Shown here one piece after another: positions 4,940 through 23,761 of a stretch of DNA of 24,000 nt. The position numbers and the translations under genes were made by a program. Source of the DNA: Candidatus Woesearchaeota archaeon (GTDB lineage: Archaea; Nanobdellota; Nanobdellia; Pacearchaeales; GW2011-AR1); NCBI GenBank assembly GCA_964360985.1, contig CAYHYK010000009.1:1-24000 (forward strand), given 5' to 3'. Position 1 is the stretch's first letter; every line of letters begins with the position of its first letter. The notes below the pieces were generated by a model. That model saw only the letters and a program-made list of their open reading frames with translations. It had not been told where the DNA came from and made no database searches.

Positions 4940-5091
4940 CAGACCCAGGAGGAATCGAACCCCCGTCACAACGTTTCTTCTCTTCTCCTTTAAGAAAGAT
5001 TGGCTCTCTTAAAGGAAGGTTGAACAACAAGGAAACCTTAGTTTCCTTATGATCCGAAGCGTCGTATTCTAATCCACTGAACTATGGGCCT
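4940..5091 (-). tRNA. tRNA-Arg (anticodon UCG) with a roughly 79-nt intron at the canonical 37/38 position
   Basis: Hand-folded from the reverse complement. Acceptor stem AGGCCCA/TGGGTCT with discriminator G; D arm GTTC-AGTGGATTA-GAAT; anticodon stem CGACG/CGTTG with loop CTTCGG|A; T arm GGGGG-TTCGATT-CCTCC. Exons are 5054-5091 and 4940-4974, and the intron is about 4975-5053. CUUC of the anticodon loop pairs with GAAG at the intron 3' end, flanked by 3-nt bulges (GGA and AAA), which is BHB-like. Confidence 0.85.
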
Positions 5092-5231
5092 AGACTTTCC
5101 AAAAGAATTAAATAATTTCCCTTTTTATAGTTATAGACCTTAATTTTGGTCTTAACTATTTAGGGAAAGATATAAGTAAGTAGATACAATTATATATCTT
5201 TCACTATAATCCTATTGAAGAAAGAGATAAA

Positions 5232-6344
5232 ATGGTAAAATCACTAGCAGGCATAGCTACACTACTTGGTACAATAATAGGTGCAGGAATTCTAGGAATA
5301 CCTTATGTAGTAATGAAATCAGGATTTTTATTAGGAGCTCTAAATATTCTAATTCTGGCAGTTATGATGGCTATTATCTGTTTGTGTATAGGAGAGATAA
5401 CATTAAGAACAAAATCAGACCATCAACTAACGGGTTACGCTGAAAAATATCTAGGCAAAAGAGGAAAAATATTAATGTTTATAATAGCCGCATTCGGTGT
5501 GATTTCAGCGCTTCTAGCCTACTTAGTTGGAGAAAGTGAATCGATATCCTATCTAATTTTTAATTCTTCAACTTACAAATTAGAAATGGGTTTGTTCTTT
5601 TGGGTTCTTTTATCAATCCTTTCACATAAAGGAATAAAAACTTTAAAATTAGGAGAAGAAATAGGATTAACTCTTGTTTTAATATTTCTAATTTCTATAG
5701 GAATATTCTCATTAAATAATATATCTACAGAAAACCTTATATATAATAATCCTAAAAATATATTCGCTCCATTTGGAGTTGTACTTTTCTCTCTTTTAAG
5801 TTTTTCAGCAATACCTGCATTAAAAAGAATTTTGGATAAAAACAAATCCTCTCTAAAAGGAAGCATAATCAAATCATATACATTTGTTACTATCATCTAT
5901 CTTCTATTTACTGCAATAGTTTTAGGGCTAAAAGGATCTAACACTCCTCAAATAGCAACGTTAGCATTAGGAAAACCTTTCATCTTACTAGGAATGTTAA
6001 CAATGTTTATGGCTTATCTTTCTCTATCAAATGCCCTTAGAGATGCATTTACTCTGGATTTTGGTTTATCTCTCAATAAAGCATGGTTTATTACTAGTAT
6101 TGTTCCTCTAGCATTGTTTATCTTTCTTCAAATAACCAACAATGCAAACTTCATTAGAATAATGGAAATAGGAGGAACTATTTGTGCAACTCTTGCAACT
6201 ATAATGATTTTCATTATATTCCACAAAGCAAAATATCTTGGAGATAGAAGACCAGAATATCAAATAAAATTACCAAAAATAATAATTTTCTTAATAGTAA
6301 CACTATTCATCATAGGAGCCATAGCCAACCTTATGACTATTTAG
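5232..6344 (+). CDS. Amino acid permease (Aa_trans / aromatic amino acid permease-like, multi-pass membrane protein)
   Basis: 370 aa with roughly 10-11 hydrophobic helices. The N-terminal signature IATLLGTIIGAGILGIPYVVMKSG is typical of the amino-acid/auxin-type and Trp/Tyr permease families. Confidence 0.7.
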   Translation: MVKSLAGIATLLGTIIGAGILGIPYVVMKSGFLLGALNILILAVMMAIICLCIGEITLRTKSDHQLTGYAEKYLGKRGKILMFIIAAFGVISALLAYLVGESESISYLIFNSSTYKLEMGLFFWVLLSILSHKGIKTLKLGEEIGLTLVLIFLISIGIFSLNNISTENLIYNNPKNIFAPFGVVLFSLLSFSAIPALKRILDKNKSSLKGSIIKSYTFVTIIYLLFTAIVLGLKGSNTPQIATLALGKPFILLGMLTMFMAYLSLSNALRDAFTLDFGLSLNKAWFITSIVPLALFIFLQITNNANFIRIMEIGGTICATLATIMIFIIFHKAKYLGDRRPEYQIKLPKIIIFLIVTLFIIGAIANLMTI

Positions 6345-10214: not shown

Positions 10215-11255
10215 TTAGCCCCCACCAAACCTTCTCTTTCTTCTTCCATATTCTTTTATGGCTTCATCTAGTTCTAAAACTCCAAACTCCGGAAAATAAA
10301 CTTTTGTAAAGTAAAGTTCAGCGTAAATACTCTGAAAGGGCATAAACCCACTTAATCTATATTCCCCGCTAGTTCTTATAATTAAATCTGGATCAGGCAT
10401 ACCAGAAGTATCCAAAAATTCTGTAAAATCATCTTCACTCATTTCTTTTCTCTTTGATTTTATAACTTTATTAACTGCTCTTACAATCTCATCCCTTCCC
10501 CCATAATCCAAACACAATAAGACATTAAACTCCATGTAATTACTAGTCTCCTTTTCCAGTTTATCCAACGATTTAATCAAATTTTTAGGCAATCTATCTT
10601 TCCTTCCAATATGTTTAAAGTTCATCTTGTTTTCCTTGGCAAATTTCATAAATCTCTCAACTCCCTTGAGCAACATATCAAAAATAGCCTTTCTTTCTTC
10701 ATCCTCTCTCTTCCAATTTTCTGTAGAAAATCCCCATATAGAAACATACTTTACTCCTAGATTTTTAGCTTCTTTAAGTAAAGATTCTATACTACTATAA
10801 CTTCCTGCTCTATAATGTCCAAACTGAGGTTGTAATCCTCGTAGTTTTGCCCATCTCCTATTTCCATCAGGAATTATAGCTACATGTTTTGGAATTTTAC
10901 TAAAATTCCGACTACTTTTAGCCCTAAATATTCCTTTAAACAATCTTGATATACTCTTTAGTTTATCAACAAAAAAATTACCCTCACGAACAATAACAAA
11001 TCTGGAAGAAACTTTTTCTATGTCTCTCCAATTAACTTCTAGGTTTTCAACCTTGGATAGTCCTGGACTCCCTTCAAGCCATTTTATCATATTATTAATA
11101 TCTTCTCTTTCACCCTGAACAACAATAAGTACTCCTCCATTAACAAGATTCATAGCACTACCTCTTAACGCACAATCATCAGCATATTTCTTTACCTCTT
11201 TCCTAAAATGTATTCCCTGTACTCTTCCTCTAACCTCTATTCTTGCTTCTTTCAT
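10215..11255 (-). CDS. uppS: Acylphosphatase-domain / cis-prenyltransferase (undecaprenyl-diphosphate synthase family) fusion protein
   Basis: Residues 1-90 carry an acylphosphatase signature (IEVRGRVQGIHFRKEV...GSAMNLVNGGVLIVVQGE). From about aa 120 the UPPS motifs appear: HVAIIPDGNRRWAKLRG, VSIWGFSTENWKR, IIRTSGEYRLSGFMPFQSIYAELYF, and a C-terminal RRKRRFGG. Its start overlaps the upstream DHH gene stop by 4 nt. Confidence 0.85.
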   Translation of the reverse strand: MKEARIEVRGRVQGIHFRKEVKKYADDCALRGSAMNLVNGGVLIVVQGEREDINNMIKWLEGSPGLSKVENLEVNWRDIEKVSSRFVIVREGNFFVDKLKSISRLFKGIFRAKSSRNFSKIPKHVAIIPDGNRRWAKLRGLQPQFGHYRAGSYSSIESLLKEAKNLGVKYVSIWGFSTENWKREDEERKAIFDMLLKGVERFMKFAKENKMNFKHIGRKDRLPKNLIKSLDKLEKETSNYMEFNVLLCLDYGGRDEIVRAVNKVIKSKRKEMSEDDFTEFLDTSGMPDPDLIIRTSGEYRLSGFMPFQSIYAELYFTKVYFPEFGVLELDEAIKEYGRRKRRFGGG

Positions 11256-12371: not shown

Positions 12372-14771
12372 CTAGTAAAGAATTCCACCATAATAATTCT
12401 CTTCAAAAGGAAGTTCTATTTCAGAAATTTCCTTATTATCTACTAAACTATTAGCCTTTATCTTCGCAGGAGATAAAGTGTATAAATTATCCCCAATATA
12501 TAGACTTCTCTGCACCTGATATTTATAATCATAGAAGGGATTATTGTTAATTCCTCCAGGTAATGAATCAATCATCTCATTACTCCAAATATTTTCATAA
12601 TATCCATAATACGATCTAGTAGCTATATCTGAATCTTGCTCATATAATCCTACTCTATCCGTTTCCCATTTATCTTCAGCAACTTTAGTCCATATCTCTC
12701 CACTATGTCCCTCTCTCTTAGCTCCGATCGGTTCCTCAGAAGCAGACCCATATTTTTTAATATCATCAAAATGAGTTACTTGTCCTTTTACTTTAATTTC
12801 ATTTTCTTTTATATCAAAAATATAAGCTCCTTGCCATACAACTTCTCCATAAGCCCATTGAGGATTTTCACTATTATATTGATTTTCTTTTATCTTTGCT
12901 AAATTTATAGGCAATACCATTAAGTTTCTACTCTTATCGAATAAGAAAGCCTTATGATCATATAAAGCATTGCTATCAGTTCCTTTATCTCCAATAACTA
13001 TTTTAGCACTCTCCTTAGGATTTGCAACATCTCTAACATCAAATATTGCAATCTTCAATCCTTGAGGTGAAACAAAATCTCTTCCATTATTAGAAATCTC
13101 CACAGTTTCTTTTCCTATTCCTATAATATGATTTTCATCATAGGCATGTAAATAATCAGAATATCCCGGAATCTTCAAATATCCTAAAACTTTAGGTTCA
13201 TTCGCTTCAGACAAATCAATAACATAAAAAGGATCTATCTGTCTGAATGTAACTAAGTAAACTCTATCTTCAATAAATCTTGCAGAATAAATTCTCTCTC
13301 CTGGAGCTAAGTTTTCTATTTCTCCCACCAAGTTTAAGTTCTCATTCAACACATAAATGTTATTTTTACTATTTCCATTCCAAGACTCTCCAGAAGTAGT
13401 TGCTATTCTAAAATAACCTTCATTCTCATCCATAGAAAATTGATTTAGAACACTTCCCTTAACCTCTCCCTCTGTAATATATTCTATTTCTTCTTCATCA
13501 ACTCCAATTTTATGAATAACCGTCTTCTCTCTTTCCTCCCTTAATTCTTGAACAAATTCATTCATTCCATTATATAGCTTCTGATCAAAATCATCTTTAT
13601 CTCTTCCTTCCAAAGAACTAGAATAATCTGATACAATTTTATTTATCTCATTGCTTTTTTCAAAAAATGACTCATCGCTTGACAATATCCCTCTTATTTC
13701 ATTCCCTTCATTAGAAGGAACAATAGGCAGAACAACCTCTTTTATCATATCCTCAAAATAATCTCTCTGATCCAAAAACTTTGTATAAGTTAAATAGATA
13801 TTATCTTCAGAAACATATATATTATTACTTGATCCAGTAAGATAAACTTTATTATCAACTTCCCCATTATCAATATTCACCGCACTAATTGTATTAAAGG
13901 CATATTCATAATCCCAATAATCAAAATAATAAAGATCACTTATAGCCATTCTTTCTTCAACTCCATTTACTTTTAACATAGGCATTACAGGATCATTACC
14001 ATTCACATATTTAGAACCAATAACATAAACATAATCTCCAATCATTCTAGAATTAATATAATTTCCTTCAACACTTATTTCATCATCCAATTCAGGCCTA
14101 GCTCTATCGCTGATATCATAAATATAAGTATAAATTTTAGATTCTCCACCATAATAAGAAGGAGCTATCATACCTGTCGCTACGGCTTCAGATGCAATCT
14201 TAGCATTTTCAACACCTTCAACATTATGCACTACACTTCCTTCTACCCCCTGTCCAGAATTGATTGTCTCATAACCCTGAGCAAAAACTACAAGTTTATC
14301 CTCATTAACAAATATTCCCAATAAACTTTCATCTTTAAATTCAATTTCGCTTACAATTTTCATTCCCTCAGCAGGGAAAGCATTAACAATAACTACTTTA
14401 TTTCCAACAATATCATAAATATATTTTCCATCATTCTTCACAATATCTGCTTCATCTACTCCCTCTACCTGAATATTAGTTTTTGAATAATCTCCAGTCT
14501 TCGCTCCAGAACCTTCTGCAGTCACACTTGCTGAATCTTCCTGTGCAAATTGTCGATTAACAGCCGGCAAAACTCCATTTAATATTCCTGAATTTTCAGA
14601 TTGACTTTCTTCTAAGAATTCTTTCAGTTCAGAATAAGAACTAAAACTCTTTATTTTATCACTTGAAATTCTTTCATTAATATTCGAGTCAAACATAGAA
14701 ACTACTATCATTCCTAAAACAAACATCAATAATATTACAACAATACTTATGTTCTTAGTTTCATCTTTCAT
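12372..14771 (-). CDS. Secreted/anchored beta-propeller domain protein (COG4880 / PF09826-like)
   Basis: 799 aa with an N-terminal signal-anchor (ISIVVILLMFVLGMIVVSMF) and the hallmark motif YSKTNIQVEGVDEADIVKNDGKYIY. The remainder is long and rich in beta-strand-type sequence, with recurring blade-like segments. Confidence 0.7.
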   Translation of the reverse strand: MKDETKNISIVVILLMFVLGMIVVSMFDSNINERISSDKIKSFSSYSELKEFLEESQSENSGILNGVLPAVNRQFAQEDSASVTAEGSGAKTGDYSKTNIQVEGVDEADIVKNDGKYIYDIVGNKVVIVNAFPAEGMKIVSEIEFKDESLLGIFVNEDKLVVFAQGYETINSGQGVEGSVVHNVEGVENAKIASEAVATGMIAPSYYGGESKIYTYIYDISDRARPELDDEISVEGNYINSRMIGDYVYVIGSKYVNGNDPVMPMLKVNGVEERMAISDLYYFDYWDYEYAFNTISAVNIDNGEVDNKVYLTGSSNNIYVSEDNIYLTYTKFLDQRDYFEDMIKEVVLPIVPSNEGNEIRGILSSDESFFEKSNEINKIVSDYSSSLEGRDKDDFDQKLYNGMNEFVQELREEREKTVIHKIGVDEEEIEYITEGEVKGSVLNQFSMDENEGYFRIATTSGESWNGNSKNNIYVLNENLNLVGEIENLAPGERIYSARFIEDRVYLVTFRQIDPFYVIDLSEANEPKVLGYLKIPGYSDYLHAYDENHIIGIGKETVEISNNGRDFVSPQGLKIAIFDVRDVANPKESAKIVIGDKGTDSNALYDHKAFLFDKSRNLMVLPINLAKIKENQYNSENPQWAYGEVVWQGAYIFDIKENEIKVKGQVTHFDDIKKYGSASEEPIGAKREGHSGEIWTKVAEDKWETDRVGLYEQDSDIATRSYYGYYENIWSNEMIDSLPGGINNNPFYDYKYQVQRSLYIGDNLYTLSPAKIKANSLVDNKEISEIELPFEENYYGGILY

Positions 14772-14789
14772 ATTATATAAAAATCTCCC

Positions 14790-14800
14790 TTATATTTAAA
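14790..14800 (-). promoter_or_regulatory. TATA-like box (TTATATTTAAA) of the beta-propeller gene
   Basis: 18-nt spacer to the ATG at 14771. Confidence 0.3.
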
Positions 14801-14832
14801 CAGTCCTTTGGGTTCAATAGTTCTTGCACCAA

Positions 14833-15435
14833 TCATTTTCTTCTCCATAAATTTAACACCATAAATATCAACAATGCAGACAATGCTCCAGCTAAAAACC
14901 AAAGCCATACATTTTGAGCAATATTAATTATTTCAATAGTTGGAGTTCCAAAATTTTCAGAAACTTTGGCTAATTCAGATGCAATTCCTCCAACACCCTC
15001 ATCCATAACTTTCTGAGCTACCTGTAAATTCTGACTAGTATTTTCAGTTAATCCTCTAGAAACTCTATTATCCACAAAAATCTTTATTCCTAAAGCCAAA
15101 GCTCCTGTAATTAAAATAGTAGGAATAACTCCCCTTATAATATTTCTAGGAGAAATAATAATTTTCTTATTTGCAATCTTATATTTATGAATTCTTTTTC
15201 CTTTAACGCTCCACAAAAATACCTTAACTTTTTCTATTAATCCTGCCCCTTCCAATTTTTTAATATTGTATCCAACGGTATTCATAGGCGCCCCTATGCC
15301 TTTAGCAATTTCACTCTCACTTAATTCATTATCTGCCAAAAGAGTTAATATCTTCTTAGAAGTCTTGTTAGATATAACATCTGCAATCTTTTCCGTTCTA
15401 GGATCATTTAAATCGATCATAATTGAATTAGACAT
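14833..15435 (-). CDS. Membrane-anchored ArsR-family winged-helix transcriptional regulator
   Basis: 200 aa. wHTH region: ISNKTSKKILTLLADNELSESEIAKGIGAPMNTVGYNIKKLEGAGLIEK. Two TM helices follow (GVIPTILITGALALGIKIF and VWLWFLAGALSALLIFMVLNLW), bracketing a loop of about 50 aa. A TATA-like box at 15458-15467 lies 23 nt from the ATG. Confidence 0.75.
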   Translation of the reverse strand: MSNSIMIDLNDPRTEKIADVISNKTSKKILTLLADNELSESEIAKGIGAPMNTVGYNIKKLEGAGLIEKVKVFLWSVKGKRIHKYKIANKKIIISPRNIIRGVIPTILITGALALGIKIFVDNRVSRGLTENTSQNLQVAQKVMDEGVGGIASELAKVSENFGTPTIEIINIAQNVWLWFLAGALSALLIFMVLNLWRRK

Positions 15436-15457
15436 ATAAAATCTAGCAATTTATCCT

Positions 15458-15467
15458 TTATAAATAA
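15458..15467 (-). promoter_or_regulatory. TATA-like box (TTTATAAATA) of the ArsR-TM regulator gene
   Basis: 22-nt spacer to the ATG at 15435. Confidence 0.35.
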
Positions 15468-15499
15468 AACTAAAGGTTCAATTCAATCTGAACCTAAAA

Positions 15500-18259
15500 C
15501 TAAGCATAATCTCTAATAATATCTTTAATAGCCTCATCCACCTTAGGATCATTTAAAACATCCTCTACACCTAATGCTGCTCCGCCACCAACTCCAACAG
15601 GACTATAATCCTCGCAATCAAGTTCATCTAAAGTGCTATCAGTTCCTCTATCAGGATAAGGTTCTTTTATAATATTTCCTCCTGAAAATAAATAATTTAA
15701 GGTATAAATAGCATCTGACAAATCAATTTCTCCGTCATCATTTGCGTCAGCAGCATCTTTGCAATCAACTATTCCTGTACCAGTAAACAAGAAACTCAAA
15801 GTATTAACAGCATCAGAAATATCAACAGCTCCATCAATATTACTATCTCCTCTTAAGAAAGTTTTTTCTCTTTCATCGCACACATCTCCAGTTCCGTCAC
15901 CGTCACCATCTTCTTGCAACGGATTAAATATGAAAGGACAATTATCTATAGAATTACTAACTCCATCTCCATCACTATCTTCTTCCTTTACAGTCAATGT
16001 TAATATCTTCTCATCAGTCAAATAACCATCGCTAACTTCAAAAATAATTTTATATAGGCCAAAGTCTTGCATAGAAGGTGTAAAACTAAACTCTCCTGTT
16101 ATTGAATTAAACTCAAAATCCTTGCCTGCCAAAGATACATCTGCATCACTAGAATAAATTAAATTATCTTTATCTGGGTCACTTCCATTCAATTGCAAAG
16201 TTAGTTTCTCCCCTATGTCTATAGTTCTATCTTCTATAGATTCCATAACTGGAGCAATATTAGTTTCATCAGCAAACAAAGGGGCTACCAAGAATGGAGT
16301 ATAACTTACCCTTCCTAAATTGCCTGCATCGAAAAAGTCAACTATTCTATGAGTTATTCCTAGTTTATACTTGCTTCCCCACCAATTAGACAAAGCATCA
16401 ATATCTATATTTTGGTTATTCTTTAAAGCCGACTGGCTATTCCTAACTAAATCATTGTTTGTTATATCATTACCTCTACTCTCTAGTTCTAGCACAATTC
16501 CATTTAAATTATTTGTTATAGAGTTACCATTAATAAAACCTGAATTAAAATTCTTAACAAATAATCCAAAGTTATTATTATTAATTATATTATTATTAAT
16601 ATTATTACCCAAAGCAGGATTGACATTGCTACCCATAGCAGAAATTCCCTTGTCATAATCTTTAACATTGCAATTAGTTATTTCTACATTATCCTTTCCA
16701 CCTAAATTGGAAATTCCTATTCCTGCCTTATTACTACCTTGTAAGATTGCACCATTACAATCTAAAACAACATTATCATTCTCAATTTTAACTCCACTTG
16801 GAATATTATAACTAAACTTACAAAATTCTGTATTAGACTTTATGCTCATTCCATTTTCAGCCATATCACAACCCAAAAAACCAAATAATGCCTTTGCATC
16901 AACTCTAGCACTACTTATTCCGTTGCCGCTATCGATAACTTTAGGTGAATAAGTTTTAAGCATGTCCACTATCTCAGTCACACTTAAAGTTGAATCGTAT
17001 TGTTTGATCAATGCAATTATTCCTGCTACATGAGGCGCCGCTGCAGAAGTCCCGCTTCTTGTGGAGAAACCTCCACCTAAATCACTAGAAAGAATTCTTG
17101 AGCCAGGAGCAACAAAATCTAGTTCCATATAACTATTCGAAGAACAAACAACTTGGTCTGCACTAGTAGTGCTATCTGTGCATGTTCTTTTGCATTCCCC
17201 AGTTTGTAAATCACTTTCCACACAAAAAGTCCTTGAACCCACATCAGCGTCGTAAACTGAACCAACAGAAATAGCCTTTGGACTACAAGAAGGGTAACTA
17301 ATTCCATTCTTTGCGCCTCCATTTCCAGAAGCAGCTACAAAGGGCATTCCTAAATCATAAGCCCTATTTATTAAAACGTCCATCTCAGTCTGAGGACAAT
17401 TAGAACTCTCATATATAGAACTTCCAATACTCATAGTAATTATATCCGTTCCTAAATCAACTTGTTTCTCTAAACACCAATCAATACCTGCATTAATTGC
17501 TGAATCAAAACAATTTTCATTTGCATCACAAACTTTAGCTGCTAACAATTTAACATCAGGAGCAACACCTATAGAACCAGCTTCTAAACTAATAATTCCA
17601 GCAACATGAGTTCCATGACCACTTCCTTCATCCATAGGATCAGCGTCATTATTAGCAAAATCATATCCTCCAATAACCTTTGAACCTGTACCCATAAATC
17701 CTCCTAAATTAGGATGAGTGTAATCTATTCCTGTATCTACAACACAAATAACCTGTCCATTTCCAGCTAATCTCTTTCCCTCATGCACGACATTATGAGC
17801 ATCATCAGCATTTATAAGTGGAACACTTTCAGACATCAACGGCTTATACATCTTATCAGAATAAATTCTTTTGACATTGCTGTTAGAAGCCAACTTATTC
17901 AAGCCATTTTTATTAACTTTTCCTGAAAATCCAGGCACCATTTTATATTTATATTTCAGTTTAAAATCACTTCCAACCAGAGATAAAACTCCGTCCTCTT
18001 TTAATTTAATTTTATACTTATAATCATTAATTTTGCTTTTATCAAATCCGCTGTCATAAAGTTCAACAACTACAGAAGTATAACTTTCCTTAGTCAGCTT
18101 ATCAAAAACAAGAGATTCTACCTTGCTAGAATAAGATGAACTATAACTGTAAGAAGTACTAGGGCTGGGAGAAGGATAATAACTCTGAGCAGAAACAAAA
18201 ATTAAACCGTTAAATAATAAAAAAACAGCCAAAATCTTCTTAAAATTGCTTCCATCCAT
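15500..18259 (-). CDS. Secreted subtilisin-like serine protease (S8) with I9 propeptide, parallel beta-helix, Ig/cadherin-like, TSP3 and dockerin modules
   Basis: 919 aa with a signal peptide (KKILAVFLLFNGLIFVSAQS). Catalytic triad: D175 (VVDTGID, nt 17735-17737), H216 (HGTHVAG, 17612-17614), S405 (SGTSAAAPHVAG, 17045-17047). Beta-helix repeats span aa ~495-625. An Ig/cadherin-like domain spans aa ~668-758. TSP3-like DSDGDGVSNSIDNCPFIFNPLQEDGDGDGTGDVCD follows, then a dockerin pair at aa 801-868. Confidence 0.9.
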   Translation of the reverse strand: MDGSNFKKILAVFLLFNGLIFVSAQSYYPSPSPSTSYSYSSSYSSKVESLVFDKLTKESYTSVVVELYDSGFDKSKINDYKYKIKLKEDGVLSLVGSDFKLKYKYKMVPGFSGKVNKNGLNKLASNSNVKRIYSDKMYKPLMSESVPLINADDAHNVVHEGKRLAGNGQVICVVDTGIDYTHPNLGGFMGTGSKVIGGYDFANNDADPMDEGSGHGTHVAGIISLEAGSIGVAPDVKLLAAKVCDANENCFDSAINAGIDWCLEKQVDLGTDIITMSIGSSIYESSNCPQTEMDVLINRAYDLGMPFVAASGNGGAKNGISYPSCSPKAISVGSVYDADVGSRTFCVESDLQTGECKRTCTDSTTSADQVVCSSNSYMELDFVAPGSRILSSDLGGGFSTRSGTSAAAPHVAGIIALIKQYDSTLSVTEIVDMLKTYSPKVIDSGNGISSARVDAKALFGFLGCDMAENGMSIKSNTEFCKFSYNIPSGVKIENDNVVLDCNGAILQGSNKAGIGISNLGGKDNVEITNCNVKDYDKGISAMGSNVNPALGNNINNNIINNNNFGLFVKNFNSGFINGNSITNNLNGIVLELESRGNDITNNDLVRNSQSALKNNQNIDIDALSNWWGSKYKLGITHRIVDFFDAGNLGRVSYTPFLVAPLFADETNIAPVMESIEDRTIDIGEKLTLQLNGSDPDKDNLIYSSDADVSLAGKDFEFNSITGEFSFTPSMQDFGLYKIIFEVSDGYLTDEKILTLTVKEEDSDGDGVSNSIDNCPFIFNPLQEDGDGDGTGDVCDEREKTFLRGDSNIDGAVDISDAVNTLSFLFTGTGIVDCKDAADANDDGEIDLSDAIYTLNYLFSGGNIIKEPYPDRGTDSTLDELDCEDYSPVGVGGGAALGVEDVLNDPKVDEAIKDIIRDYA
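15656..15859 (-). other. Dockerin-type Ca-binding repeat pair (C-terminal module of the S8 protease)
   Basis: RGDSNIDGAVDISDAVNTLSFLF...VDCKDAADANDDGEIDLSDAIYTLNYLFSGG: two EF-hand-like loops each followed by a helix, as in dockerin type I. Confidence 0.7.
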
Positions 18260-18281
18260 ATAAAACCTACCTAATTAAGGT

Positions 18282-18293
18282 TTAAATATATTT
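18282..18293 (-). promoter_or_regulatory. TATA-like box (TTAAATATATTT) of the S8 protease gene
   Basis: The same 12-mer as at 22101-22112, with the same 22-nt spacer to the ATG (18259). No SD-like sequence lies in between. Confidence 0.4.
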
Positions 18294-18339
18294 GGTTATC
18301 TAAAATGTATTGAATAATTCCCAAAAAGAAACACAGTTT

Positions 18340-20427
18340 TTATTTAAGACTATAATTAGTAATCAGATCACATCTCCCTTCAATAATCGTCAACCCATTA
18401 CAACAACCAAGCATATTGACTGCATATGCTCCTTGAGGGGCGCACACAGATTGACAAGTATAATCTTCGGGAGAATCGCCCCAGCAATATCCACTACCAC
18501 ATTCAGTATTGCAATCACAAGATTCTGACTGACTGCACTCAAGTTCAGAATTACACTCTGTAGGATTATTTACACAAGATAAATCTGTTAAAGTCTCTTT
18601 GATACATATTCCATTTTCCAAAATCTTAGAACAGCAATTAAGAGGATTGTTTGTCCTTGCGCCTTCAGGAGCACAACCAGACTGACATACATAATCTCCT
18701 GAATTATCATTCCAGCAATATCCGCTAGCGCATTCACTATAACAATGGCATTTATCACCGCTCTTGCAGCTCAAACTAGAAGTGCAGAAAAAAGGATTAT
18801 TTTCACAGCTAGCAGGTAATCTTTGGCATTGCCCATCCTTACATTCAAATCCCTGACTGCACTGACTATTACTATTACAGTTAGCAATAGCAGCACAATA
18901 TCCATTTTTACATTCTAATCCAGAAGAACATTCTCCACTACATTGACAAATCTGCCCAATACCACAAGATAAAGAATCACAACTATTTTCATCATTATCT
19001 ACACAAGAAGAAATTCCAGAAGTTGCACAAGCTCCATCAATGCATTTACTCATATAACAACCCATTTCTGTTTCAGAAATATCTGAACCATCACAACTAT
19101 ACTCTACTAATATAGACTGATCCTTGCAATAATCTTCTTTTGAAAAGGCCAAGCCCCCGCTTCTCCCGGAAATAATCCCTTTCCTAGAAGCTATTTTTCC
19201 ACTATCGCTGTCAACACAAGAATCTTCTTCATTAAAAGGGGTAAAAACTTCGCATACATCTAAAGAAGAACATCTAAGTCCATTAGCACATTCTACATCA
19301 CAATCACATCTAGTTGCTCTACCACAATTATCATCCTCAAGTTCATTATTGCACACGTCAATAGGATTGTTACCACAGCTAATTTCTTTACTCGCCTCTT
19401 CTACACATTCTCCTCCAATACATCCATTTTCACAAACTTTATTTTCTTGCAAAACTTCTTTATTATCACAATAATATTCTATCAATGTATTCTCTAAACA
19501 ATAATCATCTTTTGTATCTATTTCTCCATCCTTCAAAAATGTAACACTTCCAACTCTAGAATATTCAATTCCTCCATCTATATCGAAACATTCGTCATCA
19601 ACAATTTCTCTTTTCTTTTCATTTACGCAAACACCTTCGCTACATCCATTTTCACAAATCTCGGCTTTTTCTGCAAGTTTCTCACCTTCACAATAATATT
19701 CTATAAGTTGCCCTCCCCTACATAAATCATCTCTAATAAACGGAGAGCCCTTATTATATCCAGTTACCCTTCCTTTAACTTCTACATCATTAACACTATC
19801 TATATCTTTACATGAGTTGCTCAAACTTTTACTCTCCTCTCTAAACAAGTATTTCTTAAACTCTGCTCTATCCTTAAAATCAACAGCTCCGTCATTATTA
19901 ACGTCCGCATTACTTTTACATTTTACATTTGATTTACCAAGTATAGCCTCAGTCACAGACGTATAATCTGACTCTTCTATTTTTCCATCTCCATTCACAT
20001 CTCCCACATAACTAGAACAATCTTTTTCTTCTAAGGAACCATCAATGTTGGACACTCTTTCATCAGATCTTTTTCCAATATCAGAACCAACATCTGGACT
20101 TAGTATATTTCCCTCCAAACCTCTATCAACTCCACTTCCCCTGGATAATAAATAGGTAGTTAATGCTCTTGAATCAAGGTTATCAATGATTCCATCAGAA
20201 TTAAAATCAGCATTACTAGTACATTCCAATTTATTTCCTTCCAAAAAATCCTTTATAGACTTAACATCATAACTATCAATGACACTATCTCCATTACTAT
20301 CTCCTTTAATAGATGAACAACTCTTAAAAAACAGAATTCCTCCGCCTATTCCTACCAAAACAAGCAATAAGATCACCGAAAAAGACAAAACACCAATATA
20401 TTTGCTCCCTATATCAACCTCATCCAT
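18340..20427 (-). CDS. Cysteine-rich modular surface protein with N-terminal anchor and two dockerin-type modules
   Basis: 695 aa with a TM anchor (IGVLSFSVILLLVLVGIGGGILFF). Dockerin pairs are at aa 42-94 and 142-195. The rest holds about 66 Cys arranged in two repeat families: module A x3 at aa 206-267, 280-341 and 404-467; module B at aa 351-392, 475-511, 517-534, 541-608 and 618-686. Confidence 0.75.
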   Translation of the reverse strand: MDEVDIGSKYIGVLSFSVILLLVLVGIGGGILFFKSCSSIKGDSNGDSVIDSYDVKSIKDFLEGNKLECTSNADFNSDGIIDNLDSRALTTYLLSRGSGVDRGLEGNILSPDVGSDIGKRSDERVSNIDGSLEEKDCSSYVGDVNGDGKIEESDYTSVTEAILGKSNVKCKSNADVNNDGAVDFKDRAEFKKYLFREESKSLSNSCKDIDSVNDVEVKGRVTGYNKGSPFIRDDLCRGGQLIEYYCEGEKLAEKAEICENGCSEGVCVNEKKREIVDDECFDIDGGIEYSRVGSVTFLKDGEIDTKDDYCLENTLIEYYCDNKEVLQENKVCENGCIGGECVEEASKEISCGNNPIDVCNNELEDDNCGRATRCDCDVECANGLRCSSLDVCEVFTPFNEEDSCVDSDSGKIASRKGIISGRSGGLAFSKEDYCKDQSILVEYSCDGSDISETEMGCYMSKCIDGACATSGISSCVDNDENSCDSLSCGIGQICQCSGECSSGLECKNGYCAAIANCNSNSQCSQGFECKDGQCQRLPASCENNPFFCTSSLSCKSGDKCHCYSECASGYCWNDNSGDYVCQSGCAPEGARTNNPLNCCSKILENGICIKETLTDLSCVNNPTECNSELECSQSESCDCNTECGSGYCWGDSPEDYTCQSVCAPQGAYAVNMLGCCNGLTIIEGRCDLITNYSLK
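19843..20004 (-). other. Dockerin-type repeat pair 2 of the Cys-rich protein
   Basis: GDVNGDGKIEESDYTSVTEAILGKSNVKCKSNADVNNDGAVDFKDRAEFKKYL. Confidence 0.65.
20146..20304 (-). other. Dockerin-type repeat pair 1 of the Cys-rich protein
   Basis: GDSNGDSVIDSYDVKSIKDFLEGNKLECTSNADFNSDGIIDNLDSRALTTYLL. Confidence 0.6.
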
Positions 20428-20448
20428 GTTCTAAAAAACAAAAAGCAA

Positions 20449-20460
20449 TTTATATATTTT
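20449..20460 (-). promoter_or_regulatory. TATA-like box (TTTATATATTTT) of the Cys-rich protein gene
   Basis: It lies in the 34-bp spacer between the M64-like stop (20462) and the ATG at 20427, with a 21-nt spacer to the ATG. Confidence 0.35.
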
Positions 20461-20461
20461 G

Positions 20462-22078
20462 CTAGCCAAAGGTTTTGCTAAACCATCCTGTAATTAACCC
20501 TGAAATTCTATCGAATACAGAATAACTTTCTGAATATGATATGGGACTTGTAGAAGATGATGCTGAGGCAGAAGAAGAAGCTGAAGCACTAGGTTTAACG
20601 CTAGAACTAGGAGAAGCAGTTGGAGCAATACTTGAACTAGGAGATATGCTAGGTCTAACACTAAAAGTTGAACTAGCTGAAGCACTAGGTTTAACGCTAG
20701 AACTAGGAGAAGCAGTTGGCGTAGCGAAATCATTCAAATAAACTTCTAGCCATTCTATATCCAAAGAATCTATTTTATCATCTCTATTCACATCCGCATT
20801 GTCAGCACAAATAAATAGAACTTCTTCATTCAAATAAAGATTAAGCCATGTCACATCCTTACTATCTATTTTGCCATCACTATTTACATCTCCTAAATTA
20901 TCATTGCATATCTCAACTGAACCTAAAGGAACTTTCTTTCCCTCTTCTCTAATTTCTATTTTTTTAGGATCTTCATTTCTAGAAACTTCAATTTTTGCAT
21001 AAAAAGGCTCAGGCTCTATGATAAATACTTCTCCTTCAAATTCATCAGTTTCAGGATCTATTCCATCACTATAAAGATATTCTTCTTGATTCTCGAAAGT
21101 TTCCCCACTCATATAAACTTGTTTTTCAAAATCAGGTAAATCAGTATAAATGTAATCTGGATTTATTTGATTAATATCAAAAAATTCTCCCTCATCATTT
21201 GAAAATCCTACTTCATAACCTCCTACACCGTTATCTCCAACACACCCTTCCTCTATTTTTGCATCAATCTTAAATCCTTCTTCATCTCTAACTCCCTCAA
21301 CCAAATAATATTCGCTGTCGTAGCAATCCTCTCTGACCTCAATTACATTTCCAGTTATCCCAACATTGCTTTGTTTTTCAATTTTATCCGCCACAACTTG
21401 TCTGTCAAATTTTCCATAATTATTTGTTCTTAATGTTCTCATAACACCGCTCTCGATAGACCGGCTATATTCTCCTTCAGAACATCCACTAAAACACCCT
21501 TCATTCATTCCATCAAACTCACCACAATCAAGAACGCAATTTCCTGCAGAATTACGAGGTATTTTAGCAGGTACATACTCCTCGGCCAAATTCACAAATG
21601 AATGTCCAAATTCATGAACAAAAACATTCTTGGAATGCTTATAATTCAAACTCATAACATTAACATAACTTGAACTTCTTATACTCTCTGACTCATCATC
21701 ATTTATCACAACAATATAATCATTTGGACAAGACCCTGATTTTTTTATCAAATCTCTATTATAACACAACAAAGCAATTCCCTTATATATTTCACATAAA
21801 GGATAATAATCGCCAATATAATAAAAATTAAATCTATCTGCATAGCTGTTAAAAGGATCTGTCTCTAAAAAATAATTCATATAATCTAAAGCAATTTCTT
21901 TTTTATTAGCAAAAAATACAATATCTATCCCGTTATTTGAAGTCTTTTTCAAAGTAGTGCATTTTGCCAATCCTGATTCTGATAATTTAAGGTCATCTTG
22001 AGAAACATAAAATAAAACTCCTCCTATTCCCAATAAAACAAATACTACTAAAACAATAAAATAAACAAACCTTGCCAT
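20462..22078 (-). CDS. M64-like zinc metallopeptidase with dockerin-type module and Pro/Ser-rich repeat linker
   Basis: 538 aa with an N-terminal anchor (FVYFIVLVVFVLLGIGGVLFYV). The motif VHEFGHSFVNLAEEY (nt 21575-21616) matches the HExxHxxxxLxDEY pattern I associate with the IgA-peptidase M64 family. A dockerin pair is at aa 394-449, a P/S/A-rich linker at aa 452-518, and a short tail FDRISGLITGWFSKTFG ends the protein. Confidence 0.7.
   Translation of the reverse strand: MARFVYFIVLVVFVLLGIGGVLFYVSQDDLKLSESGLAKCTTLKKTSNNGIDIVFFANKKEIALDYMNYFLETDPFNSYADRFNFYYIGDYYPLCEIYKGIALLCYNRDLIKKSGSCPNDYIVVINDDESESIRSSSYVNVMSLNYKHSKNVFVHEFGHSFVNLAEEYVPAKIPRNSAGNCVLDCGEFDGMNEGCFSGCSEGEYSRSIESGVMRTLRTNNYGKFDRQVVADKIEKQSNVGITGNVIEVREDCYDSEYYLVEGVRDEEGFKIDAKIEEGCVGDNGVGGYEVGFSNDEGEFFDINQINPDYIYTDLPDFEKQVYMSGETFENQEEYLYSDGIDPETDEFEGEVFIIEPEPFYAKIEVSRNEDPKKIEIREEGKKVPLGSVEICNDNLGDVNSDGKIDSKDVTWLNLYLNEEVLFICADNADVNRDDKIDSLDIEWLEVYLNDFATPTASPSSSVKPSASASSTFSVRPSISPSSSIAPTASPSSSVKPSASASSSASASSSTSPISYSESYSVFDRISGLITGWFSKTFG
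20579..20718 (-). repeat. Two perfect 44-bp direct repeats (20579-20622 and 20675-20718), 96-bp period, inside the Pro/Ser linker
   Basis: gctgaagcactaggtttaacgctagaactaggagaagcagttgg occurs twice and encodes PTASPSSSVKPSASA at aa 486-500 and 454-468. Confidence 0.9.
20732..20899 (-). other. Dockerin-type repeat pair of the M64-like protease
   Basis: GDVNSDGKIDSKDVTWLNLYLNEEVLFICADNADVNRDDKIDSLDIEWLEVYL. Confidence 0.65.
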
Positions 22079-22100
22079 CTATCTAAAAAATAACGATAGC

Positions 22101-22113
22101 TTAAATATATTTT
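22101..22113. promoter_or_regulatory. Shared TATA-like box TTAAATATATTTT between divergent genes
   Basis: Exactly 22-nt spacers separate it from the ATG at 22078 (minus strand) and the ATG at 22136 (plus strand). The element is nearly palindromic. Confidence 0.4.
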
Positions 22114-22135
22114 GGATAACGCACAAATTTAAATA

Positions 22136-23761
22136 ATGAGAAATTTAATATACCAAATGAATAAAAGATGTATTTTTTTAAGTTTATTTTTAATATTATC
22201 AATTTCTAATTCCTATGCACTAAATAATGCAGATTTCGCAATTTATACAGGATCAGGAACATGGGAACATAGTATTACTTCATTTGAAAAATTTTTAGAA
22301 TGGAAAAATCTTTCCTACGAAGAGATAAGCGCATGGAATTTAAACCATGAAAGTTTAATAGGTAAATACAATGCAATATTTTTCCCAGGCGGCTGGGCTT
22401 ACAATTACAAAAAATCAATACATGATTCTGGAAATCAAAACATAAGAGATTTTATATATTCAGGAGGCGCATATATAGGAATGAGTGCAGGCGCTTACTA
22501 TGCATGTGACAATGTCCGTTGGGATGGCCAAGATTATCCTTACTATCTAAATCTCTTCCATGGAGATTGCATAGGTCCAATCGAAGAAATAGCCTCCTGG
22601 CCAAATTATATCATGACAACAATATCAATAAATCCCTCTCACGAAGCAAATATTTATGAACCCTCAACAGAAGATGTTCTCTATTATGGAGAGCCTTATT
22701 TCATCCCATATCAAACTCAAGAAATGCAAACATTAGCATCATGGAATATTCCATCAAATCCTTCACTGGATAAAACTTCTGGAATCATCAGTTTTAATTA
22801 TGGCTCTGGCAGAGTTCTTTTGGTCGGCCCGCATCCAGAAATAGAAGAAGATTCTGATAGAGATGGTAACTCATTTGGTGAAGAACTAAATGACGAAGGT
22901 TCAGACTGGCCATTTCTTTGGACTGCAATAGATTGGCTTATGAAAAAACCAATCTCATTACCTCCAGAACTTCCTCAAGGAACTACACAAGCAAATAATG
23001 ATACCATTGCCCCAATAATCCATTCCTTCTCAGACTCTCCAGATCCTTTAACAGCAGGCACGTTACTAACAATAAAAGCAAATGTAACAGACAACATAGC
23101 AATTAGCTCTGTAAGAGTTAATATTTTAGATATCTTCTACCCAATGTCTCTAGAACAGGGTCCGCCAGCAGCAATTTTTTATGATAATTTCGAATCAGGT
23201 TCTCTAGCCGGCTGGACAAACACTGCAATTTCAGGTGGACAAAAATGGACAGCCTCAACAGTAAATCCATTCCAAGGTTCATGGCACGCCCAATCACAGC
23301 CTCGCTCAACTAACGAGCCAGCAAGCACTTTAGAAAGAACCGTCCCAACAACAAATTATCAAGGAATAACAATAAAATACGCCAGAAGACTAGTTGGTTT
23401 AGACGCAGCAGACGAATTCAAAGCAAAATGGTTCGATGGAGCAGCATGGAATACTTTAGAGCAAACAAGATCTAAATCAGCTAATGATGCTTCATATATA
23501 ACAAAATCCTTCTCTCTTCCCTCAAGCGCAAATAACAATCCTAACTTCAAAATAAAATTTGAATGCACAGCGGGCGCAGTATCAGAATACTGCAGAATAG
23601 ACAATATAAACATCTCTGCCTCAAGCTCTCCAACAGGCCTCTATATATATAAATTCAACACTGCAAACTTAACAAACGACACACACGCCTATACAATTTA
23701 TGCTGAAGACACTTCAGGAAATCAACCAGTCCCACAAGGCGGAGATTTCACAATTATTTAA
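22136..23761 (+). CDS. Secreted class-I glutamine-amidotransferase-like (BPL_N-like) protein with C-terminal Ig-like domain interrupted by a MAM/lectin-like jelly-roll domain
   Basis: 541 aa with a signal peptide (CIFLSLFLILSISNSYA). The GATase1/BPL_N-like core reads AIYTGSGTW...AIFFPGGWAYNY...IYSGGAYIGMSAGAYYAC...LLVGPHPEIEED. An Ig-like segment at aa 291-340 resumes at aa 497-541. The inserted domain at aa ~345-496 begins FYDNFESGSLAGWT and ends CRIDNINIS. An alternative start is the ATG at 22157 (MNKRC). Confidence 0.65.
   Translation: MRNLIYQMNKRCIFLSLFLILSISNSYALNNADFAIYTGSGTWEHSITSFEKFLEWKNLSYEEISAWNLNHESLIGKYNAIFFPGGWAYNYKKSIHDSGNQNIRDFIYSGGAYIGMSAGAYYACDNVRWDGQDYPYYLNLFHGDCIGPIEEIASWPNYIMTTISINPSHEANIYEPSTEDVLYYGEPYFIPYQTQEMQTLASWNIPSNPSLDKTSGIISFNYGSGRVLLVGPHPEIEEDSDRDGNSFGEELNDEGSDWPFLWTAIDWLMKKPISLPPELPQGTTQANNDTIAPIIHSFSDSPDPLTAGTLLTIKANVTDNIAISSVRVNILDIFYPMSLEQGPPAAIFYDNFESGSLAGWTNTAISGGQKWTASTVNPFQGSWHAQSQPRSTNEPASTLERTVPTTNYQGITIKYARRLVGLDAADEFKAKWFDGAAWNTLEQTRSKSANDASYITKSFSLPSSANNNPNFKIKFECTAGAVSEYCRIDNINISASSSPTGLYIYKFNTANLTNDTHAYTIYAEDTSGNQPVPQGGDFTII

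Follow-up and report, generated by a model that had tools for sequence, protein, structure and literature searches.

The stretch analysed here (the window) comprises 24,000 nucleotides of a Candidatus Woesearchaeota archaeon (contig CAYHYK010000009.1, positions 1 to 24,000). The gene content is archaeal, with GatD/GatE-type amidotransferase subunits, an archaeal-type prolyl-tRNA synthetase (ProRS) containing ProRS-C_1 and a deoxyhypusine synthase (DHS), and the GC content is about 31%. An open reading frame (ORF) on the minus strand (18340..20427, ATG start, stop codon within these coordinates) encodes a cysteine-rich protein of 695 amino acids (aa) and is located between the genes of an M64-like zinc metalloprotease and a secreted S8 subtilase. 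Exactly 66 cysteines were counted in this protein (9.5% of the residues) and a single histidine (1/695). A first-pass annotation of the same DNA had reported the 695-aa ORF with about 66 cysteines, and its nucleotide coordinates and module boundaries were found to be correct. The features of the protein, in order from the N-terminus, are as follows.

20326..20397, minus strand: N-terminal hydrophobic segment, aa ~11-34 (Kyte-Doolittle peak 2.69)
20146..20319, minus strand: dockerin 1, aa ~37-94, cysteine pair C37/C69 (extent 37-94 from alignments with PDB dockerins)
19843..20019, minus strand: dockerin 2, aa ~137-195, cysteine pair C137/C170 (best Pfam stretch 142-194)
19618..19821, minus strand: module A copy 1, aa 203-270, six cysteines (51.2 bits, independent profile)
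19396..19599, minus strand: module A copy 2, aa 277-344, six cysteines (54.8 bits; copy used for the AlphaFold2 model)
19249..19383, minus strand: module B short copy 1, aa 349-393, eight cysteines (B-core profile E=1.2e-10)
19018..19227, minus strand: module A copy 3, aa 401-470, six cysteines (52.5 bits, independent profile)
18892..19011, minus strand: module B short copy 2, aa 473-512, eight cysteines (B-core profile E=1e-12)
18823..18885, minus strand: lone four-cysteine hairpin, aa ~515-535 (B-core profile positions 16-40 only, E=4.2e-6)
18592..18816, minus strand: module B long copy 1, aa 538-612, twelve cysteines (copy used for the AlphaFold2 model)
18358..18585, minus strand: module B long copy 2, aa 615-690, twelve cysteines (C-terminal end of the protein)

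The cysteines are distributed over these units as 2+2+6+6+8+6+8+4+12+12 from the N- to the C-terminus and none lies outside them. Every unit therefore holds an even number, namely two in each dockerin, six in each A copy, eight in each short B copy, four in the hairpin and twelve in each long B copy. The hydrophobic segment is preceded by a positively charged N-terminus in the orthologs and would act as a type II signal anchor, with the N-terminus inside the cell and the remainder outside. The predicted topology, outward from the membrane, is thus an anchor, two dockerins and about 500 aa arranged as A-A-B-A-B-hairpin-Blong-Blong.

Five orthologs (P0001-P0005) aligning with the window protein at 38-41% identity were found. 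All of them are intact with their cysteines conserved, as expected of a genuine gene maintained by selection; the first-pass annotation had named a pseudogene in relatives as grounds for refutation, and this was not seen in any of the five. Modules have been gained and lost among the orthologs, as the first two A copies are missing from P0005 and extra B units are present in others, and the cysteine positions are constant despite this turnover. Repeats within the gene are weak at the DNA level, so that the module duplications are old.

Dockerin_1 (PF00404) was the only family returned by a Pfam scan of the whole protein, in two stretches (65.9 bits, with the cut-off at 22.9). Dockerin sequences in the PDB match at E-values down to 2.5e-5, while NCBIfam recognises the dockerin region only, through the CelK model (E<=1). 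The N-terminal anchor and the dockerin pairs described in the first-pass annotation are both recovered. Two loop-helix segments of the calcium-binding type (D-x-[ND]-x-[DN]-G...D) can be read from the sequence of each dockerin, GDSNGDSVIDSYD and NADFNSDGIIDNLD in dockerin 1 and GDVNGDGKIEESD and NADVNNDGAVDFKD in dockerin 2, and both dockerins are predicted to bind calcium. The pairs C37/C69 and C137/C170 are invariant in the six orthologs. A conserved cysteine before the first and the second calcium loop was also observed in every dockerin of the locus, including the one encoded by the M64 gene (~20730-20900, minus strand). This cysteine pair may be a disulfide staple which, to our knowledge, the classical dockerins of clostridia lack.

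Module A was described in the first-pass annotation as a repeat occurring three times, and this is well supported. The three copies (core aa 206-267, 280-341 and 404-467) share 15 invariant columns, including six cysteines, three aspartates and one glutamate, and score 51-55 bits against a profile made of 1,272 copies from other proteins only, whereas the best of 200 composition-preserving shuffles of the cysteine-rich region reached 3.5 bits. The consensus over 1,291 copies is C-x-D-[ST]-D-G-G-x-[DN]...G...D-x-C-x5-[LV]-x-E-Y-Y-C-x11-C-x3-5-C-x-[DN]-G-x-C, with conservation of 94-99% for the cysteines, 91% for D8, 98% for D32 and 94% for E42. All six cysteines and the four acidic positions (D6, D8, D32 and E42) are retained in the three window copies, and the acidic cluster suggests a calcium site. 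Cys4 and Cys6 are lost jointly in 10 fully aligned copies belonging to 10 different proteins, making this the commonest non-canonical cysteine pattern; about 0.15 joint losses are expected under independence, and the single losses number three and one. A paired loss so far above chance indicates a probable Cys4-Cys6 disulfide. The AlphaFold2 model of copy 2 is compact and all-beta, with a predicted local distance difference test (pLDDT) score of 94. The best Foldseek match of this model in the PDB has E=2 and a template modelling (TM) score below 0.4, and nothing was returned from BFVD; the module A profile likewise found no significant match among PDB sequences (best E 3.1).

In a search with a profile of 90 copies (A3) against 1.84 billion cluster representatives, 12,137 carriers of module A reached E<=1e-3; of the stricter thresholds, E<=1e-10 was reached by 4,618 and E<=1e-30 by 882. 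A single protein contained as many as 26 copies. The named carriers belong mostly to the DPANN archaea (Micrarchaeota, Woesearchaeota, Nanoarchaeota, Ca. Bilamarchaeum dharawalense and Anstonellales), and outside the archaea there is one match labelled 'bacterium' and one from Myxococcota. The first-pass annotation regarded the protein as unusual for an archaeon, a view that these numbers contradict, since module A ranks by this survey with the commoner domains found outside the cell in DPANN archaea. Seventeen short proteins of ~80-130 aa with a single module A (P0181-P0197) were returned when its alignment was used in a word-indexed search. The Myxococcota match is one of these single-module proteins and comes from a metagenome-assembled genome, so that module A is not strictly archaeal.

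The partner domains of module A include S_layer_C, CARDB, PKD, Laminin_G_3, FG-GAP/VCBS, Kazal and dockerin. Most frequent among them is Kazal, which occurs as one domain at the N-terminus in 33 of the 85 high-scoring proteins, and a lipobox-like signal was found in about a quarter of the module A proteins (40/164). The dominant layout among the carriers consists of an N-terminal signal, one Kazal domain and four to ten tandem A copies (P0007, P0009, P0012, P0033, P0044, P0045 and others); these look like an uncharacterised family of surface lipoproteins in DPANN archaea, headed by a protease-inhibitor domain. Taken over its partners and predicted fold, module A would be a general extracellular building block.

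Module B occurs in a short and a long form. The B core has eight cysteines (SC-x-NNP-x2-C-x3-L-x-C-x2-G-x2-C-x-C-x2-EC-x-SG-x-C-x4-C), and the long form extends this core by YCW...Y-x-C-x3-C-AP-x-G...CC...G-x-C to a total of twelve. The two long copies, which are 51% identical (BLASTP E=6e-22), and the short copies at aa 349-393 and 473-512 (B-core profile E 1e-10 to 1e-12) were all present as first annotated. A further short copy, placed at aa 517-534, was upheld only in its last part: the four-cysteine hairpin that ends the B core is there and is kept in the orthologs, and the remainder of the core was unmatched. Among 197 proteins compared, both forms were confined to the window protein and its five orthologs, the B-core profile giving one hairpin match outside this family, and on this distribution module B is lineage-specific. 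The long-B alignment, used in a word-indexed search, gave 0 matches and did not recover the known orthologs either, and a pattern scan of metagenomes for module B, with patterns that were too narrow, gave no confirmed locus.

Paired behaviour of cysteines was also observed in long B. In P0001, P0003 and P0005 the change of SGC to AEL accompanies that of NCC to NCR, and the close relative P0004 retains both cysteines; the co-lost residues behave like a disulfide pair. The paired losses in both modules, along with the even counts, point to disulfides rather than metal sites and agree with the disulfide-rich extracellular protein that had been predicted.

Module B had also been called knottin/EGF-like. 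The AlphaFold2 model of long copy 1 (pLDDT 88.4) gave Foldseek matches to colipase (1eth_B, E=0.23, probability 0.80, TM 0.39 over 37 aligned columns) and to the knottins atracotoxin, maurocalcin, a conotoxin and the spinach trypsin inhibitor SOTI-III (E 1.8-4.7, 25-39 residues), none of them significant. The target-normalised TM scores against the knottins are 0.57-0.84 but cover 25-37 residues only, and the query-normalised scores do not exceed 0.40. 'Knottin-like' is therefore used here for a weak, statistically insecure resemblance at the level of the predicted fold and claims no membership. The EGF part of the description was not supported, as no EGF-type Pfam family matched any module at E<=10.

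Neither module belongs to a named family, as first annotated: both are unnamed in the copies of Pfam-A, NCBIfam and the PDB that were searched. With each module submitted alone at E<=10, Pfam returned five chance-level matches (E 0.07-1.8, all well short of the cut-offs) confined to two modules. Among the A copies, two had 0 families and the third had chance-level matches only (E 0.07-0.09); Dickkopf_N reached E=1.8, on a hairpin. A protein with ten A copies likewise gave no Pfam match for module A. For the cysteine-rich part, the PDB sequences searched at E<=1 gave one chance-level match (E 0.53), the others being essentially dockerin/EF-hand. A relationship between modules A and B was rejected (hhalign probability 4%), as was homology to Kazal domains, for which hhalign against 37 Kazal domains taken from module A proteins gave 0.5% for module A and 0.3% for module B and Pfam gave no Kazal match (PF00050/PF07648). 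Nothing on modules A or B was found in the DPANN literature on cysteine-rich, Kazal or dockerin proteins.

Three genes near the cysteine-rich gene are listed here.

20462..22078, minus strand: upstream neighbour, M64-like zinc metalloprotease (Peptidase_M64 28.4 bits, Dockerin_1 43.6 bits)
15500..18259, minus strand: downstream neighbour, secreted S8 subtilase (Peptidase_S8 147 bits, TSP_3; Dockerin_1 E=0.011, below cut-off)
22136..23761, plus strand: divergent BPL_N-like protein, hydrophobic segment at the N-terminus (Pfam BPL_N 83 bits)

The M64-like protein has a HEFGH motif at aa 160, an N-terminal anchor, a dockerin and a Ser/Pro/Ala-rich tail, and the S8 protein consists of beta-helix, Ig-like, TSP3 and dockerin-like modules. 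Dockerins are thus found on three adjacent proteins, with that of the S8 protein scoring below its Pfam cut-off. The order M64-dockerin, cysteine-rich and S8 is kept in five other metagenomic contigs that carry an ortholog (L001-L004 and L006). The full order including the divergent BPL_N-like gene was found in L001 (GCA_053534655.1) and in L004, from a groundwater metagenome; BPL_N is present as an edge fragment only in L002 and L006, and L003 ends after the start of S8. Beyond this block L004 carries the genes for the helix-turn-helix (HTH), beta-propeller, DHH, acylphosphatase-UPPS and DHS proteins, as in the window. The first-pass annotation was silent on the conserved position of the cysteine-rich gene between two dockerin-tagged protease genes.

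Identity to the window differs strongly between these genes. It is 82-86% for BPL_N (L001 and L004), 86% for DHS, 75% for DHH, 70% for UPPS, 57-59% for S8, 56% for the beta-propeller and 48% for M64. The cysteine-rich protein, at 32-41%, has the lowest identity, so that no other gene in the block evolves as fast. Such fast divergence and module turnover are typical of an exposed interaction surface, which the array may represent. Five consecutive genes with N-terminal hydrophobic segments (beta-propeller PF09826, S8, cysteine-rich, M64-like and BPL_N-like) make up a secretome island at 12372-23761 that is kept in L004; the secreted BPL_N-like protein is unexpectedly the most conserved of them (82-86%).

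Dockerin proteins that resemble parts of this locus have been described. A rare double dockerin on an S8 protease of C. thermocellum is believed to fix that protease at the cell surface (PMC12484212). This double dockerin, dDoc_0689, has two tandem type-I-like dockerins as found here, and the role proposed for them is cell-surface anchoring rather than enzyme carriage. Of the systems described, it comes closest to the N-terminal half of the window protein. It differs in that the S8 subtilase is part of the same protein, whereas it is encoded by the adjacent gene in the window. The double dockerin in the window is archaeal, N-terminal just after the membrane anchor, and fused to a cysteine-rich array, with a conserved cysteine pair in each dockerin. 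A 151-aa chain named 'Serine protease' in the PDB (8x39/8x3a) aligns across both window dockerins and is probably dDoc_0689. We know of no description of a double dockerin combined with cysteine-rich modules. Dockerins on secreted archaeal proteins, including peptidases, also occur in non-cellulosomal cohesin/dockerin modules unlinked to cellulose, for example in Archaeoglobus fulgidus, and the present locus is similar in this respect.

Dockerin-bearing inhibitors of cellulosomes form a second group of parallels, namely the serpin PinA of C. thermocellum and Dpi of C. cellulolyticum (PMC12484212). Like the window protein they are non-catalytic dockerin proteins among dockerin-tagged enzymes that include S8 proteases, but the window protein contains no serpin or known inhibitor domain. 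For the array, the closest proteins are those with Kazal and tandem A copies in Micrarchaeota and other DPANN archaea (for example P0007, P0009 and UniRef100_A0A5E4LRB4), all annotated as hypothetical or 'Kazal-type inhibitor'. They share the six-cysteine module A with its D/D/D/E positions and EYYC in extracellular tandem arrays, and differ by their Kazal head, by having as many as 26 A copies, and by the absence of dockerins and module B. Knottins and the colipase fold are small, disulfide-dense and poor in regular secondary structure like module B, which differs by its 8 or 12 cysteines, not 6 or 10, and has no match to these sequence families.

We tentatively favour, at slightly less than an even chance, a role for the cysteine-rich surface protein of this DPANN-type archaeon as a non-catalytic, protease-resistant stalk or binding subunit of a dockerin-organised set of extracellular proteases. 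The architecture, the module families, the paired behaviour of the cysteines, the conserved neighbourhood and the fast divergence form its observed base. With the predicted topology and with calcium presumably bound, the dockerins would couple the protein, together with both dockerin-tagged proteases, to a partner that carries cohesins and is encoded at another site. The densely cross-linked array would serve as a rigid stalk able to survive beside the M64-like and S8 proteases, and the family-specific, fast-evolving B units at its tip could provide the binding surface that targets a host cell or a substrate. Several observations weigh against this model. No cohesin was found in the 24-kb window or in about 20 kb of sequenced flanks of the related contigs, so that the docking partner is hypothetical, and the target of the cysteine-rich array is only putative. 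The cysteine-rich and S8 genes are each preceded by a TATA-like AT-rich box (AAATATATAAA and AAATATATTTAAA; 20428-20461 and 18260-18339, minus strand) at a distance of about 25-33 nt from the ATG, and with a box for each gene co-transcription is not established; separate leaderless transcripts are as possible as an operon, the boxes being weak evidence either way at 31% GC. The model also presupposes 33 disulfides oxidised outside the cell in a presumably anaerobic organism. Finally, an inhibitor would fit about as naturally with the position between two proteases, with the Kazal domains that accompany module A in 33 of 85 proteins and with the weak resemblance of the module B fold to knottin inhibitors.

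An inhibitor is the main rival explanation, which we consider possible, if rather unlikely. The B modules, and possibly the A modules too, would restrain the S8 and/or M64 proteases encoded next to them, or proteases of foreign origin, and the dockerins would place them in the same surface complex in the manner of the cellulosomal serpins and Dpi. The gene is flanked by two secreted protease genes within a conserved block, a Kazal serine-protease-inhibitor domain is the commonest partner of module A, the Foldseek neighbours of module B include the knottin trypsin inhibitor SOTI-III, cellulosomes are known to contain protease inhibitors with dockerins (PMC12484212), and fast evolution is typical of inhibitors too. 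However, the Foldseek matches (E 0.23-4.7) are not significant, neither A nor B is homologous to Kazal (hhalign probability <1%), and no reactive-site loop could be identified. Ten modules and a membrane anchor would also be superfluous for an inhibitor. At the loci of three other module A proteins no S8 or M64 protease gene was called within about 6 kb; two of the three have no protease gene in that span, and the third (P0009, locus L010) has a truncated Beta_helix/NosD gene at the contig edge about 2.5 kb away. A bolder reading would take module A as a calcium-binding, three-disulfide beta family of more than 12,000 clusters, a hallmark of DPANN surfaces without a solved relative, and the locus as a dockerin-organised protease machine whose cysteine-rich protein is a knottin-type inhibitor or adaptor controlling S8 and M64 at the contact between symbiont and host; we regard this reading as unlikely.

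Independence from the proteases is the essence of another explanation, a generic host-contact adhesin or stalk whose neighbourhood merely reflects a cluster of genes for secreted proteins. Arrays of module A in thousands of surface proteins with PKD, CARDB, LamG and S-layer partners are in line with it, as are the variable module number in the fastest-evolving gene of the locus and the TATA-like element of each gene. It is nevertheless unlikely, since all three adjacent proteins bear dockerins and the gene order is kept across genomes though the cysteine-rich protein has diverged to 32-41% identity, which together argue for a shared assembly. Cysteines holding zinc, iron or other metals in a metallothionein- or zinc-ribbon-like manner would be conceivable from the cysteine content of 9.5% and from an anoxic groundwater habitat, which is likely because the relatives come from groundwater metagenomes; small cysteine-rich domains of archaea are also often taken as metal binders (PMC13607799). 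The extracellular location, the near absence of histidine, cysteine losses in pairs and not in fours, confident all-beta or knottin-like models obtained without metals, and the disulfide-stabilised mini-proteins among the structural neighbours of module B all make metal binding very improbable. Equally remote is an array of toxin-like effectors, a possibility named in the first-pass annotation, in which knottin-like modules freed by the neighbouring proteases would act on membrane proteins or ion channels of the host. The weak likeness of module B to knottin toxins of spiders, scorpions and cone snails and the protease genes on both sides could be cited for it, but the resemblances fall short of significance and reflect only a fold generic to small disulfide-rich proteins, the protein is membrane-anchored, and no cleavage sites or archaeal precedents were found.

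Life attached to other cells is characteristic of DPANN archaea, and the mechanism of this contact is poorly understood. New in our analysis are a module present in more than 12,000 clusters yet without a curated name or a solved relative in the libraries searched, the lineage-specific module B, and the combination of an N-terminal anchor, a double dockerin and cysteine-rich modules inside a conserved protease gene set. An abundant extracellular domain, often fused to Kazal, is thus absent from the Pfam-A and NCBIfam copies and from solved structures. The conserved set of three genes for dockerin-tagged proteins suggests a cohesin-dockerin assembly for extracellular proteolysis rather than polysaccharide breakdown, in an organism of a probably anoxic habitat that appears heavily reliant on extracellular disulfides. 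Dockerin-bearing non-catalytic surface proteins are an already known kind and no current idea is overturned. The protein provides definite starting points for defining families, solving structures and assaying binding or inhibition.

Several minor features were observed in the neighbouring genes. The Ser/Pro/Ala-rich tail at the C-terminus of the M64-like protein (PTASPSSSVKPSASASS...) is encoded by imperfect 30-nt tandem repeats at 20552-20714 and is probably a glycosylated linker, and a similar S/Y/P-rich stretch lies behind the signal peptide of the S8 protein. Short ORFs in other frames over the real genes (18310-18528, plus strand; 20494-20733, minus strand; 20541-20741, plus strand) are most likely spurious products of the low-complexity repeat region or antisense. 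L006 contains an extra ORF of 150 aa without a Pfam match between the cysteine-rich and S8 genes (5084-5536). The acylphosphatase gene of the window (10215-11255, minus strand) encodes a 346-aa fusion to a UPPS-type cis-prenyltransferase, with 70% identity in L004. Between the S8 and beta-propeller genes, a gene at 14833-15435 (minus strand) encodes a 200-aa protein that combines an ArsR-type HTH_20 domain with a pair of hydrophobic segments at the C-terminus (61% identity in L004) and looks like a membrane-tethered regulator.

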